DNA of 32,000 nucleotides from Acaryochloris thomasi RCC1774. Lineage in GTDB: Bacteria > Cyanobacteriota > Cyanobacteriia > Thermosynechococcales > Thermosynechococcaceae. The stretch covers positions 120,001 through 152,000 of the forward strand of contig NZ_PQWO01000012.1 of NCBI RefSeq assembly GCF_003231495.1, read 5' to 3'. The notes beneath the pieces were generated by a model, which made no database searches, was not told the origin of the DNA, and saw only the letters and a program-made list of their open reading frames with translations. The position numbers were made by a program, and so were the translations under genes. This document shows, piece by piece, positions 24,334-32,000 of this stretch. Every line of letters starts with the position of its first letter. The first letter of the stretch is position 1.

Positions 24334-26706
24334 TTAAGTACTGGGCGATGTCTGTAGAGCCTGCTCCATGAGCCGGATATGAATACCTGGGTCGTCGCCT
24401 TGAGCTTGGCGTTGAACATATTCGCCACTCGCCTGCAGTTCCCAGGCTTGGCGCGTGTCTGCCAGCATCTGCTGTAGCAGATTATAGAGTCGAGTCACCA
24501 GAGCCGGATCTTCGATCGGGACAACAGCCTCTACTCGCCGATCCAAATTTCTAGCCCGCCAATCAGCACTGCCGATTAAAACCGTCGGGTCACCCTGGTT
24601 CTCGAAATAGAAGATGCGATCGTGTTCTAAGAACCGCCCAATAATGCTAGTTACCCGAATATTCTCGCTTACCCCTGGTACCCCCGGACGCAGGCTACAG
24701 ATTCCCCGAATAATCAGGTCAATTTCGACTCCAGCTTGAGAGGCCCGGTAGAGGGCCATAATTATTTTTTTGTCGATCAGGGCGTTCATTTTGGCAATAA
24801 TGCGGCCCGACTTGCCCGCTTCTTGATGAGCAATCTCTCGTTCAATTAGGGCATAGGTGCGATCTCGCAGGCTCACTGGGGCCACCAACAACTTACGATA
24901 CTGCTGCTGTCGAGCAAAGCCAGTGAGATAGTTGAACAAGTCTGTCAGATCAGCGCCTAAATCCTCTCGGCAGCTCAGCAGTCCCAAGTCAGTGTACAAG
25001 CGCGCCGTTTTAGGATTGTAGTTGCCGGTCCCAATATGCACATAGCGACGAATTCTCTGCTTCTCTCGCCGGACCACTAAAGCAACTTTAGTATGGATTT
25101 TTAGGCCCACAATCCCATAGACCACGTGCACGCCAACTTTCTCTAGTTTTCGTGCCCATTGAATATTGTTTTCTTCATCAAATCGAGCCTTTAGCTCAAC
25201 CAAAACTATCACCTGCTTACCGTTTTCAGCAGCGGCAATCAGGCTACTAACAATCGGCGAACCCACCATTGCTGCATCGCCATCAGTACGATATAGAGTC
25301 ATTTTGATGGTCAGAACATCTGGGTCGTGAGCTGCCTGAGTAATGAAGCGCAAAACCGTCGCCGAGAAAGATTCGTAGGGATGATGAACCAATAAGTCCC
25401 GCTCTTGGACCACTGAGAAGATATCGGCCTGATCATCTTCCATGGGCTTATCGAACTTATCAAGTTGCTGGAGAGGCTTCGGTACCGTTGGCACCCAAGA
25501 TGCCTGTTGAAATTGTGGGAAGGGAAGGCTGGCAATCCCCATCAAATTATGGAGACCGATCGGTCCTTCAACGGCGTAAACATCGCTCTCGCACAGGCCC
25601 AGTTCCTGCATCAACTTTTGGCGCATGAAGTCCGGCGTACCGTCCTGGATCTCCACTCGGACCACAGAGCCAAATCGTCGCTTCCGTAGCTCTTGTTCGA
25701 TCGCTTCTAAGAGATCGTCAGCCTCGTCTTCTTCTAGATCTAGATCAGCATTTCGGGTAATTCGGAAGGGATAGCAGGCTTCTATGACCATGCCCGAAAA
25801 TAAAGACTGCAGGTTGTGGGCGATCACCTGCTCAATCGTTACTCCCACCCACTCGCAGCCATTTTCACTCAGTCCCGGCATAGAGATAAACCGAGGCAAC
25901 ATATTCGGAACCTTCACCCGCGCAAAGTGGGATTCTCCCATATGTTCATCTTTAACAATCACCGCCAAGCTAAGGCTGAGATTGGAGATATAGGGAAACG
26001 GATGCCCTGGATCGACCGCAAGAGGAGTCAGAACGGGGAAAATCTGCTCTAGAAAATACTGCTCTAGATAGGTTACTTGTCGTTCGCTCAGGTCAGAATA
26101 GTTAACCAAGCAAATCCCAATTTCAGCCAGTTGGGGAATCAGATCTTGATTAAAGTAGCGATGCTGTCGCGCCACCTCTGGCTCAAGTTGGTCACGGATC
26201 GCATCAAGCTGCTCTTTGGGGGTCAATCCATCGTGCGATCGCTGTGTAATCCCAGCTTCGACCAGTCGCTTTAAACCTGAGACGCGCACCATGAAGTATT
26301 CGTCTAAATTCGAGCTGTAGATCGCTAAAAACTTCAGCTTTTCCAGCAGCAGTGTGCGCTGATCGAAAGCCTCATGCAGAACCCGTTGATTAAACTGCAG
26401 CCAGCTAATTTCACGATTGAAGTAATACTCAGGTGCCGCGATGTTCTGACCGCTGCTGGGAGTTGCACTCACTTGCTGCTGAGCAATCGACTGCTCAGCA
26501 GGTTTATTGCTCGGAGCACCATGACTATTAAGCGCAGCAAGGCTATCATTGCTGGCCATTGCTCGAAGTTGACTTGCTTCTGAGGAGGTAACGGAGCTAC
26601 AGGCGGTACGGGCTTCTATGTCTAGCTGCTGACATAATTCTAAGACCTCCTTTGATTGCAGGCTTAATTCTCGACTCAGCTCATAGATTCGGACGTTGTC
26701 GTTCAT
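24334..26706 (-). CDS. ppk1: Polyphosphate kinase 1 with an N-terminal IF2_N-like extension
   Basis: I prefer the ATG at 26706 (GGAGAG about 10 nt upstream) over the TTG at 26790. PPK N-domain YYFNREISWLQFNQRVLHEA, autophospho-His context LKIHTKVALVVRRE, and two PLD-like C-terminal domains (GTGNYNPKTARLYTDLGL; IGRFLEHDRIFYF; IGSADWRARNL). Confidence 0.92.
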   Translation of the reverse strand: MNDNVRIYELSRELSLQSKEVLELCQQLDIEARTACSSVTSSEASQLRAMASNDSLAALNSHGAPSNKPAEQSIAQQQVSATPSSGQNIAAPEYYFNREISWLQFNQRVLHEAFDQRTLLLEKLKFLAIYSSNLDEYFMVRVSGLKRLVEAGITQRSHDGLTPKEQLDAIRDQLEPEVARQHRYFNQDLIPQLAEIGICLVNYSDLSERQVTYLEQYFLEQIFPVLTPLAVDPGHPFPYISNLSLSLAVIVKDEHMGESHFARVKVPNMLPRFISMPGLSENGCEWVGVTIEQVIAHNLQSLFSGMVIEACYPFRITRNADLDLEEDEADDLLEAIEQELRKRRFGSVVRVEIQDGTPDFMRQKLMQELGLCESDVYAVEGPIGLHNLMGIASLPFPQFQQASWVPTVPKPLQQLDKFDKPMEDDQADIFSVVQERDLLVHHPYESFSATVLRFITQAAHDPDVLTIKMTLYRTDGDAAMVGSPIVSSLIAAAENGKQVIVLVELKARFDEENNIQWARKLEKVGVHVVYGIVGLKIHTKVALVVRREKQRIRRYVHIGTGNYNPKTARLYTDLGLLSCREDLGADLTDLFNYLTGFARQQQYRKLLVAPVSLRDRTYALIEREIAHQEAGKSGRIIAKMNALIDKKIIMALYRASQAGVEIDLIIRGICSLRPGVPGVSENIRVTSIIGRFLEHDRIFYFENQGDPTVLIGSADWRARNLDRRVEAVVPIEDPALVTRLYNLLQQMLADTRQAWELQASGEYVQRQAQGDDPGIHIRLMEQALQTSPST

Positions 26707-27056
26707 TCCCTGTGGTCTCTCCGCAATTGACGAATGGCTGGGTAGCAATGGACAAACTTTGATTGACTGGCACAATACGAGGGCTAGCAAACGCAGCTAT
26801 TTCAAGGGCTGTGCCACTCATGACGTTTCTGGGTCACTGCTAAGCCTGGGTATTGTAGGGGTAAAGGGGAAATAATGCCTGTATCCCTCATCACTCAAAG
26901 CTTCAAATGCCTCAGAATAGGCCCGAAGGCACTGGGGTGCCGTTCTCAAAATCGAGTGCTATATTGGAACCTCAGCCGGGGGGTAATTGATAGCAGTGGT
27001 GTCTTTCACCATTCTAGAATTGTCCACTCTATTGGATTTGCTCCAGGTTGTGCTTC

Positions 27057-27716
27057 ATGATGGTAGCTTCTCAAACATCCGTATCCCAACAACATTCATC
27101 CTGCTACACAGACGAGGGATTGATCCAGCGCTTCGTTGATGGATTCATCCAGGGAAACCCTATTTTATTATCAAATCCCAATCTGCGGACTGAGCCTCTG
27201 TTCAAGAGTATGCAGTTGATTGCAGGCCATGATGTGATCGCGACAGCTTATTTGCAAGACCCGCCCATCCGCGCTGTTGTGCACCACGGCTCACCCTACA
27301 GCTCGATCCTCAAGCAGGCATTACTCGCTGAGAATTTTTATCCCCTCGCTCGCACGGGGCAAAGTCAGCAGTATGTCTATCAATATTGTCTTCCTCCCGA
27401 GGGGTATGAGCTCCGCTGTACGACAGCTAAAGAGCTGTGGCGTGTTTGTTGGGGCCGAGGGTTTAGCCTCCGCTCTGGAATCCCCCTCGATTTACTCGTT
27501 TGGGGCGGCGCTTCTAGCCGCAATCATGAAAACTGGCGCTCTCTCAGAGGAATAGACTGCGATCAAGGTAAGCTGCAGCTCAAGCTTCTAGGTGGAAGTC
27601 TTGCGATCGCAAGTTCTGATCTTGTCGTGTGGGCTCAGCAAAAATCCTCACACCCCTCTCCCAGAGAGCAGCGCACAAGACCGAACCTACGAGGATACTA
27701 TCGACTGCGCAACTGA
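27057..27716 (+). CDS. Hypothetical protein
   Basis: ORF of about 220 aa with ATG at 27057 or 27060 (TTG at 27048 in the track). No motif recognised. Its stop is 25 nt from the convergent CHASE2 kinase stop. Confidence 0.55.
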   Translation: MMVASQTSVSQQHSSCYTDEGLIQRFVDGFIQGNPILLSNPNLRTEPLFKSMQLIAGHDVIATAYLQDPPIRAVVHHGSPYSSILKQALLAENFYPLARTGQSQQYVYQYCLPPEGYELRCTTAKELWRVCWGRGFSLRSGIPLDLLVWGGASSRNHENWRSLRGIDCDQGKLQLKLLGGSLAIASSDLVVWAQQKSSHPSPREQRTRPNLRGYYRLRN

Positions 27717-27741
27717 TGCCTCAGCAGAGATCGACGTAATC

Positions 27742-30543
27742 TCAAGCGGTCGACTGTAGCTGCTGAGCCTCCTGTGCAAGCGTCATGATTTGCCAGAACT
27801 CAAACTCTTTAACCGTTTGCTTGAGGGCATTGGTAAGATCAAGCTGTACCTCTGGAATCTGCTCAATGAGGGTCAAAATGGCACTGGCATCAAGACGCTG
27901 TGCGGCCCAGTCTAATTGTGTTAACCAGTCCGTTGGCATGTGAGCAAGTTGCTCCGCAGAGAGGGACTCTAAGACACTCTCATGGGTTCCAAAAGACCGC
28001 ACTGACGGGCTGAGAGGGTCTTCTTCATAAAGATACTGCACGCCCAAGTGCTCCGCTAGAGCCGTAAAAATCGTCTCTTCTTGAAAGGGCTTATAAATAC
28101 AGTCATGGCACCCAGCCGCAAGAGCACGGGTTCGCTCTTGCTCAAATGCATTCGTGCTCAAGGCGATCACGACCCCCTGCGGCGGCTCTTCCAGCGCGGT
28201 GAGATGCTGGAGCACCCTTTCTCCACCCTCAGAGGGCAGTTGAAGATCAAGGAACACCGCATCAGGGTGCCAACTTTGACAAGCGGCAATCACCTCGGCC
28301 CCGCTCTCAACCGTTCGTACTTCAAAACCCACCAGCTCCAACAGTGCCCCTAATAAATTCCGACTTTCCCAGCGCCCCTCAGCCACTAAAATTCGGTAAA
28401 CAGGTTGAAGGGGAGCAATACCGACCACTCGTTGAGATCTTTGCGGGACTCGGTTCTCAGCCATCGGCTGCACAGGTAAAATAAGACTAACAGTTGTGCC
28501 TTTATCTGGCGCGCTAGCAACGGCAAGTTTGCCCTGCATCAGCTGCGCAAACTGTTGACTGATCGCAAGACCCAGTCCTGTCCCTTTCTGAGCTTGTTTC
28601 CCTGTTCTCGTTTGGATAAACGGCTCAAAAATCTGCTGGAGTTCTTCCGGTTCTATACCGGGTCCTGTATCCTCGACCTCAAAGTAGAGATAGCAGGCTG
28701 TGGGGGAAGTTTCGCGCCCATCAAGACTCTCTATTATGTCGGTAATCTGATCTTGTTCCGCCAGCTGAACACGTAGGGTTACACCACCCGAACGGGTGAA
28801 TTTGATCGCATTGCTCAGCAAATTAATCAGGATCTGCCGTAGGCGATTCTGATCTGTCGCCATGTGTTGTGGCACGTCAGAGGCCCACTGAATTAGAAAC
28901 TGCAGGCCCTTTGTTTTAGCTTCGAGCTGCAGCATCTCCTTTAAAGTTTGCAGAAGGCGATAGAGGTCCATGCGGTCAGAACTGAGTGTCATCTGCCCCG
29001 CTTCAATTTTGGAGAGGACTAAAACATCGTCAATCAGGCTCAGTAGATGTTCGCCACTGTGGCTGATAATCTCAGTGCGTTCTCTCTGAGTGACATCTAA
29101 ATTGACGTCACGGATCATCAACTGTGTGAACCCTAAAATAGCATTCAAAGGCGTTCTGAGTTCATGGCTCATGTTTGCCAGAAAACGGCTTTTAGCCTGA
29201 TTGGCATCATCTGCGGCTTCCTTGGCCTGTGCCAATGCTTGGGTTCGTTCAGCAACGCGAACTTCTAGCGTTTTCGCATAGCCCCGTAGCTGCTGATTCA
29301 CCTGTGCCAACTGAGTATTGGCAACTTCTAACCGTTCTTGCTTATGCCAGCTGATGGCTGCAATCCCGCTGAAGAGCAGCGCAGCTAAGGGCGGAACAAC
29401 GGGAATCAACCAGCCATTGAGAAAAGCCCAATAGGTACTGCCGATCAAAATGCTCGTGGCCGATAGGATGCCGCCCACCTCTCTGAGTCCAAAGAGTACC
29501 TTTTGGCTAGCATTTGCCCGATCCAAACACAGGCCGCCAACACTGCCGATACTCGCCCAGACAAGTACCCAAAACCACTGCCCGGGAATGGGCCACCCCC
29601 GCAGCAACAAGCGCCCCGACTTGGCCGACTGAATCATCTGGCTGGCTAAATTAGCATGAATTACAACACCCGCCATTGGTTCAGCATCCGTGAACCAGGT
29701 GCGATTGCCGTAGGGAGTACCAAAAAAATCATTGGTGCTCACCGCCGTCGATCCAATCAAGACAATGCGATCTCGAATGGCTGCTTCAGGAACCTGTCCA
29801 TTTAATACCTCTGTCAGCGAGAAGGTCTGAAATCGAGAGATAGGGCCGCGCCAGTTCATGAGGATTTGATACCCGCCCCCCTCCCGTGGCTTGTACCCCA
29901 CCTCAGCAGGTTTTAGGGGCGTAAAGACAGCTTTACCAATCCGAATCTCTTCGCCATCGCTCTCCTGTGCTGTAATCCCTTGCTCCTGAAGATGTCGGAA
30001 CGCCACGTGTACTGATAGCGCATGTTTATCCACACCCTGCACAGGATCTTCGACGGTCAACAAACCCCGCCTGATTTTACGGTCAGGATCGGTCAAGAAA
30101 TCAGCAAAGCCGACCTGTCCAGCTTTTTCTAGAATTGAGGGCGGTGCCACGCGCTGATTACCAAGAATTGTCTCAACCCCAATTAAGTTTGGCGTTGACC
30201 GAAAGACCTCCAGCAGCGCCTGGTGTCCGGTCCCTTCTGGCAAATCTCGATAGAGATCAAGCCCCATCACGCTCGGACCAAGCGCCCGCAGCTGCGTCAG
30301 AGCTTTCGCTAAAGTGGCATCAGGAATCGGCCAATCACCAATTGCAGTCAGATCGGCTTCATCAATGGTAACGATCACGATTTCGGCTTCGGTACTCTCT
30401 TGAGAGCGCAAACGAAAGAACAGATCGTGGGAGGCCCACTCTAGGAGCCGAAAAATGCCTAGGGCATCACTACCCAGAACCAAAACGGTAACAATAGGGG
30501 CAATGAAAAGTGCACCTCGCCATCGCCAAGACTTGAGGTCCAC
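27742..30543 (-). CDS. CHASE2-domain hybrid sensor histidine kinase (CHASE2, 3 TM, coiled coil, HisKA, HATPase_c, receiver, helical tail)
   Basis: GTG start at 30543. N-terminal TM, then an extracytoplasmic domain of about 300 aa with CHASE2-like blocks ([11 protein letters not shown]..., [23 protein letters not shown]). Three TM helices follow. H-box [17 protein letters not shown]-box [10 protein letters not shown]-boxes DTGPGIE and [10 protein letters not shown]. Receiver with FLDLQLP / ALST / YKPF. Confidence 0.9.
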
Positions 30544-30550
30544 TACCGAC

Positions 30551-31288
30551 CTACTGCAGAACGTTTGACGTCGTCAAGGTGTCAAGTTCCTGGGGATTTA
30601 GGGCTGTCCATCCCAAAAAGTTACGCCAGGATTGAGCAATCTCAGAATTCTGAGGCTGCTGCCGTTTGAGCTGCGTCAGAGTTGCGATGGTGTCGTACCA
30701 AAAGCCAGCTTCTCCTAAGGAAATCGCCTGAGCGATGGAGGGAGCCTGAGCCACAATCGTTGCAACAGATGCATTTGGTATTACTCTTTGAACCCAACCA
30801 TCAATAAAGGGGCTGCTGGGCCGCAGTTCTCCATTACACTTCACGGCTAAAAACCATTGATAATGCTTGCTTGGTTCAAGGGCTGGGGCTTGCGCAGGAA
30901 GCTGGAAACTGAAGAGACCCGCTTTCCCTGAGATCGGTAAGCTCGTTTCAAAATGAAGCTGCTTTGCTTCATCTTTGAGGCTGAAAAAAACTTCTGTAGC
31001 CGAGGTTTCTGGCAGGTAGGCCACAATTGTGGGGCGCTCTACAGCAGTTAGACCATAATGACTTTCCGGCAGGAGCGCTTTAACCGAAGCCGATTCCGCA
31101 GTGGCAGCCGAGTCACACAACCCACCTCGCGACGCACCTTGAGAAGTTGAAGCACGACGAGGGGCAGGTTTATCAGAAGGCGATTTAAAGGGAATATTGA
31201 CGCTGGCGGCTGCCATCGGAGCCATTGCCCAACTGCCCATGGTCAAAACCATGCTCCCTAGGGCTAGTACTGGAGTCGTACGATACAT
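30551..31288 (-). CDS. DUF928-like secreted protein
   Basis: I prefer the ATG at 31288 (AAGGGG 6 nt upstream); ATG at 31318 is the alternative. Signal peptide ...[10 protein letters not shown] basic Gly/Arg N-terminal stretch [18 protein letters not shown] and [10 protein letters not shown] match my memory of DUF928. The stop is 7 nt before the kinase start. Confidence 0.72.
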
Positions 31289-31531
31289 ATAGGTCCCCTT
31301 CGTCAATCTGTTCACCATGCCTAAAAATAATTTAAAGTCAATAATTAAAGGCTCTGTCTAGTAGTGAAGCCAACAGCTCATGGATTTAGGCGACTCAAAA
31401 GCCAGATGACAACTGCTAATATATTGCTTGTCAATTAATCAATACTGCAATCTACAGTACTATTCTATTCCTAGTGTGCACTCTAATCTTTTAAATCGCC
31501 AGCTTATGGGTGTGGAAAACACTCTTTTTAC

Positions 31532-32000
31532 CTATAGCCAATTACCTACCAATATAAAGGGTGCCCAGAAAAAAGGAGCGTCATAATCACTCTCTGACAA
31601 TAACGATAGCTGAGCTTGTCTGAGGGCTTCAGCTTTAGTGATTCCTGGGATCTTCAGGGACTGATAAAACTGGCGCATGAAGGTTGCTGTTGATTGATCT
31701 CGAACGGACCAAAGCGTTGCCAGTGTGGCACGGGCACCTGAGCGAACGGCCAATCCGGCCAATCCCAGTACCGCTTTGTCGTCTCCCGCTGCTGTTTGAC
31801 AGGCACTGAGAACTAATAGCTCAATTGCTTGAGAATTTTGTGTTCCCTGTCTAGAAAGCAGTGCACTCAAATCTTGAATATTAAGTCGTCCTTCCCAGGT
31901 CAAAAGGAAGGTCTCAGATGCGTTAGAACTAAACTGCCCGTGGGTTGCCAAATGGACAATGCTAGCGGGTTCTTCGGTAACGCGTTCGGCTAATTTCGGT
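31532..32000 (-). CDS. CHAT-domain (caspase-like) protease, C-terminal part; the N-terminus lies beyond the window
   Basis: The frame stays open to base 32000, and the 'M' at 31951 is an internal TTG. Caspase-type dyad context (L)ATHGQF (His) and LVLSACQTAAGD (Cys). C-terminal APFILVGNWL is typical of CHAT proteins. Confidence 0.85.
   Translation of the reverse strand, partial: PKLAERVTEEPASIVHLATHGQFSSNASETFLLTWEGRLNIQDLSALLSRQGTQNSQAIELLVLSACQTAAGDDKAVLGLAGLAVRSGARATLATLWSVRDQSTATFMRQFYQSLKIPGITKAEALRQAQLSLLSESDYDAPFFWAPFILVGNWL

Follow-up and report, generated by a model that had tools for sequence, protein, structure and literature searches.

What connects a CHAT protease, a DUF928 protein and a CHASE2 hybrid histidine kinase that are encoded side by side in Acaryochloris thomasi RCC1774? 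The literature searched contained neither a characterisation of such a module nor a published function for DUF928, in agreement with a preliminary description of this locus, which knew of none. We analysed a window of 32,000 nucleotides that contains DUF928, the kinase and the C-terminal part of CHAT, all on the minus strand.

The three genes and their products

The three reading frames lie where the preliminary description had placed them, and strong Pfam matches to CHASE2, DUF928 (PF06051) and CHAT (PF12770) bear out its assignments. The motifs that it quoted are also present (ATHGQF and LSACQTAAGD in CHAT, a 10-residue block in DUF928). The features are:

27742–30543, minus: CHASE2 hybrid histidine kinase, 933 aa, GTG start (CHASE2, HisKA, HATPase_c, Response_reg)
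27745–27957, minus: C-terminal helical tail, aa ~863–933, a four-helix module without a named family
28057–28392, minus: receiver domain, aa 718–829 (Pfam Response_reg, E = 3.2e-18)
28468–29196, minus: kinase core, HisKA (aa 450–516) and HATPase_c (aa 563–692), Pfam
29542–30489, minus: CHASE2 domain, aa 19–334 (PF05226, E = 1.8e-64), predicted periplasmic
30544–30550, minus: gap of 7 nt from the DUF928 stop codon to the GTG of the kinase
30551–31288, minus: DUF928 protein, 245 aa from the second Met (PF06051, E = 5.1e-50)
30554–31081, minus: folded DUF928 domain, AF2-modelled as a beta-sandwich (aa 78–168) and then a helical bundle (aa 173–240)
31115–31195, minus: single copy of a conserved linear unit in a predicted-disordered segment (Arg54 codon, 31127–31129)
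31205–31288, minus: predicted Sec signal peptide of DUF928, by direct reading of the sequence
31289–31531, minus: AT-rich CHAT–DUF928 spacer, 243 bp, GC 0.37
31464–31502, minus: 39-nt conserved block in the spacer, CTGGCGATTTAAAAGATTAGAGTGCACACTAGGAATAGA, from an alignment of the window, L002 and L003 spacers
31532–32000, minus: C-terminal ~155 aa of CHAT (PF12770, E = 1.4e-39); the gene runs off the window end

The kinase is, as described before, a 933-residue protein with a CHASE2 sensory part. This domain is predicted to be periplasmic because it is flanked by hydrophobic segments at residues ~10–35 and ~316–398 (hydropathy scan, direct reading); no PDB chain matches the region by sequence. 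The core (HisKA, E = 1.3e-20; HATPase_c, E = 1.2e-27) carries the H-box HELRTPLN at residue 460 and, in HATPase_c, DTGPGI and GTGLGL. The receiver keeps the phospho-acceptor Asp (FLDLQ), the Ser/Thr and the Lys, and has an E-G acidic pair (VAEGRW) instead of D-D, a form that the orthologue alignment shows only for the window, L001 and L003. The tail behind the receiver had been said to match no named domain. It is a widespread four-helix C-terminal module for which neither Pfam (even at E ≤ 10) nor NCBIfam contains a model. The tail is conserved in the kinase orthologues, and a search with it returned 232 cluster representatives at E ≤ 1e-3, in which it nearly always forms the very C-terminus of a histidine kinase. 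Its AF2 model consists of four helices (pLDDT 83), with no significant match in a PDB comparison.

The distance of 7 nt reported from the DUF928 stop to the kinase start is confirmed; in L003 the corresponding gap measures 9 nt. An alternative upstream ATG at 31318 would extend DUF928 to 255 aa (30551–31318). A database protein from A. thomasi (C1752_04081) is 100% identical, 245 aa long and starts at the second Met (31288), and a Shine–Dalgarno-like AAGGGGA lies upstream of this ATG. Since the database protein starts there, the spacer, which is AT-rich as claimed (GC 0.37 against 0.51 for the window), more likely measures 243 bp (31289–31531) than the 213 bp (31319–31531) given previously. 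An Rfam search of the spacer found no match. The 39-nt block, with GTGCAC at the heart of an imperfect palindrome and with a TAGAAT-like −10 element, is a candidate promoter or operator of the DUF928–kinase unit, although a scan for consensus promoters did not pick it up. DUF928 and the kinase are likely co-transcribed, and such a unit fits both the short gap and the conserved noncoding block upstream of DUF928.

The proposed export of DUF928 agrees with its predicted signal peptide; signal-peptide-like N-termini occur in 72 of 79 orthologues versus 3 of 75 cytoplasmic REC-kinase controls. The AF2 model has a mean pLDDT of 80 (core >90), and Foldseek returned only generic Ig/FN3-like matches for it. 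The CHAT fragment covers positions 141–289 of the Pfam model and contains the His/Cys dyad previously described as intact (His at 31940–31942 in ATHGQF, Cys at 31799–31801 in LSACQTAAGD), which is kept in 75 of 76 orthologues. As the CHAT gene continues beyond the window, we extrapolate its signal peptide and TPR region, as well as an upstream TpsA gene in the A. thomasi genome, from orthologues. Full-length CHAT orthologues (~850 aa) consist of a signal peptide, TPR and CHAT, with Sec-type signal-peptide-like N-termini in 66 of 74 compared with the same 3 of 75 controls. These orthologues suggest that the protease is probably periplasmic, where it would meet both DUF928 and CHASE2.

Conservation of the gene order

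We surveyed the neighbourhoods of 80 cyanobacterial loci (Nostocales, Thermosynechococcaceae, Leptolyngbyaceae, Oscillatoriales and Lusitaniella), counting in each fraction the loci with enough flank. CHAT, DUF928 and CHASE2 follow in this order on one strand in 64 of 67 evaluable loci, with CHAT directly upstream of DUF928 in 70/71 and CHASE2 directly downstream in 70/72, counts that overstate the number of independent events because related Nostocales dominate the set. This linkage, tight and widespread as the preliminary description would require, is far beyond chance. Among all surveyed loci DUF928 lies directly upstream of 82 of the 85 CHASE2 ORFs. Two of the three exceptions are in L032 and L073, which yielded no intact DUF928 ORF, and the third is a CHASE2 ORF of L009 (18914–20542). 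Conversely, L004 and L062 contain TpsA, CHAT and DUF928 with the downstream CHASE2 gene absent.

Nine divergent DUF928 genes (32–51% identity to the window protein) reveal which of these links is the firmest. A CHASE2 gene comes next in 9/9, versus CHAT in 5/7 determinable cases, and the CHASE2 outputs are GGDEF (five), hybrid kinase (three) and PAS-cyclase (one). Since the output varies while DUF928 stays, the link is to the CHASE2 sensor domain and not to the output. The invariant core of the module is the DUF928–CHASE2 pair. We know of no DUF928 at all with proteobacterial CHASE2 proteins. The term three-gene module proved too narrow: CHAT is not obligatory, and genes for TpsA and TpsB (two-partner secretion) and a REC-kinase are frequent members.

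Caspase–CHASE2 fusions have been reported in cyanobacteria and in surveys of conflict systems (PMC2853523, PMC8195603). Together with the ties of TPR-CHAT proteins to phage defence through DdvA and Craspase, and a weak similarity of the CHAT domain to PADLOC BovA (E ~4e-5), they could point to a conflict, defence or programmed-cell-death system with the caspase-like CHAT protease as the effector and CHASE2 as the sensor of damage or of an invader. Such a role is conceivable by analogy to these systems, but we consider it highly improbable. The CHAT protein here would be exported separately, unfused to CHASE2; PADLOC gave no system-level match and none for DUF928 or TpsA; and the kinase produced only a weak match to SduA/DUF4263 over its receiver domain (E = 5e-4). 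Across genera the locus is syntenic with housekeeping genes (ppk) and forms no variable island, and the output domains are of ordinary types (two-component, c-di-GMP, cNMP).

An arginine-containing unit in DUF928

The most conserved residues of DUF928 sit in its N-terminus, where F34, P43, G51, A52 and R54 are invariant in the alignment and disorder is predicted (AF2 pLDDT <60 for residues 1–70). They belong to a 22-residue unit ending in GGASR, which occurs once in the window protein and as two to six tandem copies in Nostocales and Lusitaniella orthologues. The repeat period is strictly 22 aa in 222 of 232 spacings. Between units within one gene, 31% of the identical residues are encoded by different codons, and therefore the peptide sequence of the unit is under selection. 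The motif is found in 74 of 79 DUF928 ORFs and in 0 of 806 other ORFs of at least 150 aa.

With these observations in mind we propose, with our confidence evenly divided, that the module is a conserved cyanobacterial extracytoplasmic sensing system in which periplasmic DUF928 would partner CHASE2 and CHAT would cut after Arg. We infer each mechanistic step from context and analogy, including the physical interaction of DUF928 with CHASE2, the cleavage at Arg and the direction of regulation. Exported DUF928 would act as a co-sensor or as the carrier of a tethered ligand, and the kinase, replaced elsewhere by a diguanylate cyclase or nucleotide cyclase, would be an interchangeable output. The disordered segment ahead of the folded domain would display one (window) to six units ending in G-G-A-S-R. 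The neighbouring TPR-CHAT, as a periplasmic clan-CD cysteine protease, would most likely cut after the invariant Arg, and this cut would release peptide units or free the folded domain so as to switch the CHASE2 receptor. The TpsA exoproteins and TpsB pore encoded in many of the genomes would probably provide a cell-surface cue or a second CHAT substrate. Cleavage of DUF928 after the invariant Arg is plausible. The cyanobacterial CHAT protease HetF cleaves PatU3 strictly after Arg117 (PMC9457339). It speaks against this step that an Arg specificity of the present CHAT is extrapolated from HetF and separase.

In three loci no CHAT adjoins the DUF928–CHASE2 pair (L060, L090, L091). Of their DUF928 proteins at least two, P0018 (L090) and P0017 (L091), still carry GGASRG, a motif that may therefore serve CHASE2 binding instead of cleavage, or CHAT may be encoded elsewhere. 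These loci suit a different reading, in which DUF928 is an uncleaved co-receptor that, in the manner of LuxP, TorT or ChvE, would accept a ligand from outside or from the envelope via its beta-sandwich and helical domain and dock to CHASE2 via the N-terminal motif. CHAT would then act elsewhere, most likely on the TpsA exoprotein (conserved C-terminal ATGR-GG site), and the functions would be merely co-operonic. Consistent with this, module TpsA proteins contain [ST]GRGG ~83 aa from the C-terminus in 107 of 115 cases, bracketed by two Cys; L003 and L086 have overlapping TpsA and CHAT genes; and between CHAT and DUF928 lies a spacer that contains a conserved block. We nevertheless regard this reading as rather unlikely: TpsA is missing from L082 and L084 although CHAT accompanies DUF928–CHASE2 there, the DUF928 fold differs from the periplasmic-binding-protein fold, and tandem 22-aa units with an invariant Arg fit a multi-site substrate or precursor better than a docking site.

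The disordered and repeated nature of the motif could also suit an inhibitor. Separase, which shares the TPR-CHAT architecture, is inhibited by the pseudosubstrate securin (PMC11506125), and DUF928 might similarly fill the TPR/active-site groove of periplasmic CHAT with its Arg motifs and keep it inactive. The CHASE2 kinase, instead of being controlled by DUF928, would then sense or control the state of this protease–secretion system (for example a two-partner secretion or envelope checkpoint), which would accommodate the frequent linkage of TpsA and TpsB. We judge this improbable, since DUF928 tracks CHASE2 (9/9) more faithfully than CHAT (5/7 determinable) and the swapped CHASE2 outputs argue for information flow via CHASE2 into the cell.

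Comparison with known systems

A proteolytic input to CHASE2, as we propose it, has partial parallels. HetF of Anabaena PCC 7120 is also a cyanobacterial CHAT cysteine protease that regulates by cleaving one specific partner behind an essential Arg (R117/S118), namely PatU3, a cell-division and heterocyst regulator (PMC9457339). The module CHAT differs from HetF in the TPR repeats and the cleavable signal peptide predicted for its orthologues, and in its linkage to DUF928 and CHASE2. DdvA, a periplasmic TPR-CHAT protein that has a His-Cys dyad, has been proposed to initiate signalling across the membrane by proteolysis upon a protein signal, but its CHAT forms one protein with the anti-sigma factor, is proposed to cut itself and has an ECF sigma factor as output (PMC11506125). 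The module CHAT, in contrast, is separate and predicted to be soluble and periplasmic, with a CHASE2 kinase or cyclase, partnered by DUF928, as the receptor. In Craspase (type III-E CRISPR, Cas7-11 with TPR-CHAT Csx29) the TPR-CHAT cuts a dedicated co-encoded regulatory protein (Csx30), but this CRISPR-linked system works in the cytoplasm and is activated by RNA; the module loci showed no CRISPR genes. Craspase reportedly cuts elsewhere than after Arg.

In LuxP–LuxQ, TorT–TorS and ChvE–VirA a small exported protein delivers a signal to the periplasmic domain of a membrane kinase encoded next to it, an arrangement like that of DUF928 and CHASE2. LuxP, TorT and ChvE have the periplasmic-binding-protein fold, whereas DUF928 combines a beta-sandwich and helical bundle with a disordered repeated segment and a co-encoded protease. 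The LapD–LapG–LapA/CdrA system of Pseudomonas joins a periplasmic cysteine protease and a surface adhesin to an inner-membrane receptor that controls proteolysis by its periplasmic domain; CdrA belongs to the TpsA proteins. This system differs in that LapG is of another protease family, signalling by LapD runs inside-out from c-di-GMP and neither DUF928 nor CHASE2 takes part.

Among CHASE2 receptors, those of NsrA–CyaK/CyaD1/CyaD2 have, to our knowledge, the best-described input. The earlier statement that no ligand is established for CHASE2 needs a caveat in this respect: CHASE2 cyclases of Sinorhizobium meliloti respond to a protein signal (PMC7529298). This signal, the ribosomal protein uL2, is exogenous, and a beta-barrel protein of the outer membrane assists in its perception, in papers that mention neither DUF928 nor CHAT (PMC7529298, PMC13001267). 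The arrangement would parallel the outer-membrane TpsB and the proposed protein or peptide cue of the module. DUF928 with its Arg-containing motif beside CHASE2 suggests that the input of this sensor family may be a protein or peptide, an idea open to testing.

Genes of the Locus

Three consecutive minus-strand open reading frames (ORFs) are present at 27742–32000, as the preliminary description had reported, and in HMM searches each product matched the family proposed for it (CHASE2, DUF928, and CHAT).

27742–30543, minus strand: CHASE2 hybrid histidine kinase, 933 aa, GTG start (Pfam CHASE2, HisKA, HATPase_c, Response_reg)
30551–31318, minus strand: DUF928 ORF, 255 aa from the first start (PF06051, E=5.1e-50)
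31532–31999, minus strand: C-terminal fragment of a CHAT protein, 155 codons (PF12770, E=1.4e-39)

The DUF928 protein scored 170.2 bits against PF06051 (cut-off 26) over model positions 2–176 of 184. The CHAT fragment scored 136.7 bits against PF12770 and covers model positions 141–289 only, with the gene running off the window. Both residues of the caspase-like dyad recognized earlier are contained in this fragment, the His of ATHGQF at aa 20 (HLATHG) and the Cys of LSACQTA at aa 67 (LSACQT), and the two motifs are conserved in 75 of 76 orthologues. When the 155-aa fragment was used to search for homologues, most matches were short fragments, and no gene context was obtained.

The kinase contains the motifs HELRTPLN (aa 460), DTGPGI (625), GTGLGL (654), FLDLQ (764), and YKPF (817). 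With its H, N, and G boxes and the receiver Asp intact, the protein can be classed as a hybrid histidine kinase. The acidic pair of the receiver (28375–28392, minus strand, aa 718–723) reads E-G, not D-D. This pair occurs only in the window and in two related loci, L001 and L003, within the Acaryochloris/Thermosynechococcaceae clade, whereas the other orthologues have D-D; judging from this replacement, phosphotransfer to the receiver may be altered. The protein ends in a helical tail:

27745–27957, minus strand: kinase tail, ~70 aa, four helices that form a compact unit in the AF2 model (pLDDT 83)

The tail is conserved in all orthologues and, as initially suspected, corresponds to no named domain, with no Pfam match even at E≤10 and no NCBIfam model. 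When 1.84 billion representatives were searched in a full HMMER run, 232 clusters matched at E≤1e-3; nearly all have the match at the very C-terminal end of a histidine kinase, and the sensors of these kinases are unrelated (e.g., PAS, GAF, Cache). Assignment as an Hpt domain was rejected in view of the missing Pfam match and a sub-significant resemblance by profile and structure: the best natural PDB profile match was the Hpt domain of RcsD/YojN (E=0.098), Foldseek placed Hpt domains among the top matches only at E>2 (TM ~0.4), and the position aligned to the Hpt His is occupied by Glu. The tail is a general and widespread C-terminal module of histidine kinases, unnamed in Pfam and NCBIfam, and is not specific to the CHAT–DUF928–CHASE2 system.

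The 7-nt gap that separates DUF928 from the kinase gene was seen as described. The spacer between CHAT and DUF928 is AT-rich as stated (GC 0.37, window 0.51), but its length is more likely 243 bp than 213 bp because the identical database protein (A. thomasi RCC1774 C1752_04081, 245 aa) starts at the second Met. A Shine–Dalgarno-like AAGGGGA lies 5' of this ATG. Just 3' of the CHAT stop, the spacer contains a short conserved element:

31464–31502, minus strand: 39-nt noncoding block, an imperfect palindrome around GTGCAC with a TAGAAT-like element

This block is shared with L002 and L003, two loci from Thermosynechococcaceae metagenome-assembled genomes, and is more conserved than the surrounding spacer, which diverges. 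Its conservation suggests a promoter or operator of a DUF928–kinase unit. A consensus promoter and terminator scan of the region gave nothing above shuffled expectation. No Rfam family matched within 27000–32000, and a regulatory RNA in the spacer was rejected on the lack of any Rfam match at E≤1.

Gene Order in Related Cyanobacteria

A scan with a DUF928 alignment, using one genome per species, identified 179 relatives, and the best 80 of these 179 loci were kept. All 80 are cyanobacterial, mostly from Nostocales, with some from Thermosynechococcaceae, Leptolyngbyaceae, Oscillatoriales, and Lusitaniella; the alignment was narrow (8 sequences), so that this set is biased to one orthologous group and dominated by Nostocales. 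The six-frame ORFs of each locus were searched with the domains of the window, and counts were limited to loci with enough flanking sequence. The genes are indeed linked: CHAT lies directly upstream of DUF928 on the same strand in 70 of 71 loci, a CHASE2 protein is encoded directly downstream in 70 of 72, and both neighbors are present together in 64 of 67.

Since these loci are phylogenetically clustered, we also sampled nine divergent DUF928 proteins (32–51% identical to the window protein) by contig look-up with precomputed Pfam calls. A CHASE2 gene follows DUF928 immediately in all nine cases, and the outputs of these CHASE2 proteins vary (five GGDEF, three hybrid kinase, one PAS with nucleotide cyclase). 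No other single observation argues as strongly as this swapping of outputs for a tie between DUF928 and the sensor domain of CHASE2 itself.

Clustering of all ORFs and a Pfam scan of representatives revealed a module that is bigger and looser than the three genes first described. TpsA-like genes with a TPS domain (two-partner secretion exoproteins, 700–960 aa, E values in relatives 1e-40 to 1e-68) occur in 64 of the 80 loci with one to three copies each, usually directly upstream of CHAT and overlapping it in L003. The outer-membrane transporter TpsB (ShlB 9.8e-32, POTRA_2 1.8e-22) is encoded in 15 or more loci and also in the divergent locus L081. In 67 loci, a REC-HisKA-HATPase gene (433–445 aa) lies directly 3' of the CHASE2 kinase gene. 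CHAT is not obligatory: it is missing from L060 and from the divergent locus L091, which has the order TpsA, DUF928, CHASE2, and in L090 an ABC permease lies upstream of DUF928. The core that stays invariant is thus a DUF928 gene with a CHASE2 gene after it. L004 and L062 contain TpsA, CHAT, and DUF928 with no CHASE2 downstream. The window locus is one ordinary member of this widespread module.

Synteny with the window in L003, the closest full relative, includes an unannotated 222-aa ORF and the polyphosphate kinase gene ppk, and L003 has TpsA upstream of CHAT. From this synteny, A. thomasi probably has a TpsA gene as well, just past base 32000. The adjoining genes are as follows.

27048–27716, plus strand: 222-aa ORF between the kinase gene and ppk
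24334–26790, minus strand: polyphosphate kinase

Neither Pfam nor NCBIfam nor PADLOC gave a match for the 222-aa product; its counterpart in L003 (8844–9512) agrees in length, position, and relative orientation, the features by which the two were compared. The polyphosphate kinase by the module seems to be extended at its N-terminus by an IF2_N-like segment (the window protein starts with MNDNVRIYELSRELSLQSKEVLELCQQL), the IF2_N score (E=1.6e-8) coming from the L003 protein (L003:9851–12187).

Further arrangements were seen among the relatives. Some Nostoc genomes have a second, partly inverted module copy right after the first (DUF928 with convergent CHAT and TpsA; L015:14931–18515), and L009 has an extra CHASE2 ORF with no detectable DUF928 upstream (L009:18914–20542). 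In two GGDEF-type modules, a protein of 530–556 aa without a Pfam match is encoded just upstream of TpsA (L081:1894–3486, L086:1911–3581), in L081 between TpsB and TpsA. This protein may be a further module member.

Predicted Export and Anatomy of the Module Proteins

Full-length CHAT orthologues are ~850 aa long and consist of TPR repeats and CHAT (TPR_12 and CHAT in L003, L006, L081, L082, L086, and L087), an architecture also found in separase, Craspase, and DdvA. Their N-termini carry typical Sec signal peptides (e.g., MKFLIKQHRWLYVCLSIFSLCLAVTMTSVKA/S). A simple signal-peptide heuristic was positive for 66 of 74 full-length CHAT proteins and 72 of 79 DUF928 proteins, with the cytoplasmic REC-kinase proteins as a control (3 of 75). 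The CHASE2 domain (aa 19–334) matches PF05226 at model positions 3–256 of 257 (218.3 bits, cut-off 26.3, E=1.8e-64), and a hydropathy scan placed hydrophobic segments on either side of it (aa ~10–35 and ~316–398), from which the domain is predicted to be extracytoplasmic. Signal peptides and CHASE2 flanks together predict that CHAT, DUF928, and the sensor domain all meet in the periplasm. The question of where the CHAT protein resides is thus answered by orthology rather than directly.

The AF2 model of DUF928 (mean pLDDT 80) consists of a disordered N-terminal stretch of ~70 residues, a beta-sandwich (aa 78–168), and a helical bundle (aa 173–240). A Foldseek search with this model returned only generic Ig/FN3/CBM-like sandwiches (best E=4e-4, query-normalized TM ≤0.41) and no functional lead. 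With this fold and these matches, a periplasmic-binding-protein fold of the LuxP/TorT type was rejected.

The disordered segment holds several family-invariant residues (F34, P43, G51, A52, and R54). In DUF928 proteins from Nostocales and Lusitaniella, it contains a tandem array of two to six copies of a 22-aa unit with the consensus GNLFTPxxGKGAPRQATGGASR, in which GGA(S)R is invariant and the units keep to a strict 22-aa period (222 of 232 spacings). In the window protein, the unit occurs once:

31115–31195, minus strand: single, somewhat divergent copy of the unit in DUF928 (Arg54 codon at 31127–31129)

The unit motif occurs in 74 of 79 DUF928 ORFs and in none of 806 other large ORFs. Within one gene, 31% of the identical residues in different units are encoded by different codons. 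Because of these synonymous differences, the peptide sequence is taken to be kept by selection and not only by recent duplication.

The TpsA-like proteins (L003:341–2467, L006:15086–17581, and 113 further TPS ORFs in the 80 loci) share a very conserved C-terminal region of ~200 aa without a Pfam model. The motif F-[VI]-A-T-G-R-G-G-x-P-x-N-P, bracketed by a conserved Cys pair, lies ~83 aa from the end in 107 of these 115 proteins and in no other ORF. The motif may offer CHAT a second Arg-Gly site, or it may tether the proteins to TpsB.

A Probable Periplasmic Partner for CHASE2 and a Candidate Protease Step

CHASE2 was defined in 2003 from sequence analysis (Zhulin et al., as cited in PMC8195603), and its ligands were still called unknown in a 2023 paper (PMC10581220). 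The one paper found to mention DUF928 reports that Nostoc punctiforme has a CHASE2/DUF928/WD40 cluster and that sll1891 responds to acid stress (PMC5587647). The paper on Leptolyngbya Dgc2 (CHASE2-PAS-GGDEF), which was checked for adjacent DUF928 and CHAT genes, does not describe the gene neighborhood in its text, and therefore no phenotype can be transferred. Our search of the literature outside subscription journals found no description of the CHAT–DUF928–CHASE2 module, of the 22-aa repeat, or of a periplasmic CHAT protein in cyanobacteria.

An anti-phage defense function was rejected since PADLOC-DB 2.0 gave no system-level match. All matches were weak: the CHAT domain resembled BovA both in the window fragment (E ~4e-5) and in L003 (7e-5), the CHAT protein of L003 also matched a TPR-repeat model (E=4.7e-5), and the receiver of the kinase matched SduA/DUF4263 (E=5e-4). 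For DUF928 and TpsA, this database gave no match. We rate the module as a candidate system for accessory-protein and protease-assisted extracytoplasmic sensing.

Three precedents bear on how such a system may work. The cyanobacterial CHAT protease HetF cuts PatU3 strictly after Arg117 (PMC9457339), the Myxococcus protein DdvA is a periplasmic TPR-CHAT protein in transmembrane signaling (PMC11506125), and CHASE2 cyclases of S. meliloti respond to a protein signal by way of an outer-membrane protein (PMC7529298, PMC13001267). By analogy, a disordered and amplifiable unit with an invariant Arg, encoded beside an exported clan-CD protease, would look like a multi-site substrate or a peptide precursor. 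The substrate-like unit and these precedents lead us to favor a reading in which DUF928 would partner CHASE2 in the periplasm and a CHAT cut after the motif Arg would switch the pair. The two parts differ in strength: DUF928 is very probably the periplasmic partner of CHASE2, while the cleavage step, drawn by analogy, is put forward tentatively and with some doubt. The Arg (P1) specificity of the module CHAT is extrapolated from HetF (PMC9457339).

In the main rival to this cleavage switch, DUF928 serves as a co-receptor without being cleaved, and the target of CHAT is TpsA. It draws on the motif that the TpsA proteins of the module carry on their own account, FVATGRGG(V)PxNP between its two Cys, and on the persistence of the GGASRG motif in DUF928 proteins where CHAT is not adjacent.

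The strongest version of the favored reading, in which DUF928 is a polyprotein-style precursor whose released 22-mers are the CHASE2 ligand, we consider improbable. Here, the TPR-CHAT protease would cut after each invariant Arg and free 22-residue peptides, one per DUF928 molecule in Acaryochloris and up to six in Nostocales, which would bind CHASE2 and drive its output through a kinase, c-di-GMP, or cNMP. The timing of protease firing would be gated by TpsA/TpsB at the cell surface, and in filamentous cyanobacteria the peptides could travel through the shared periplasm as a cell-to-cell signal.

In many bacteria, CHASE2 is found at the head of kinases as well as of diguanylate and nucleotide cyclases. 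With an obligate, co-encoded putative partner in the periplasm that has a defined short peptide motif, and with an exported protease of predictable specificity, the question of its ligand becomes tractable. If the partner and cleavage-switch reading is true, DUF928 would gain its first function, periplasmic TPR-CHAT signaling would, to our knowledge, have a second example besides DdvA, and two-partner secretion proteins would be linked to cyanobacterial signal transduction.
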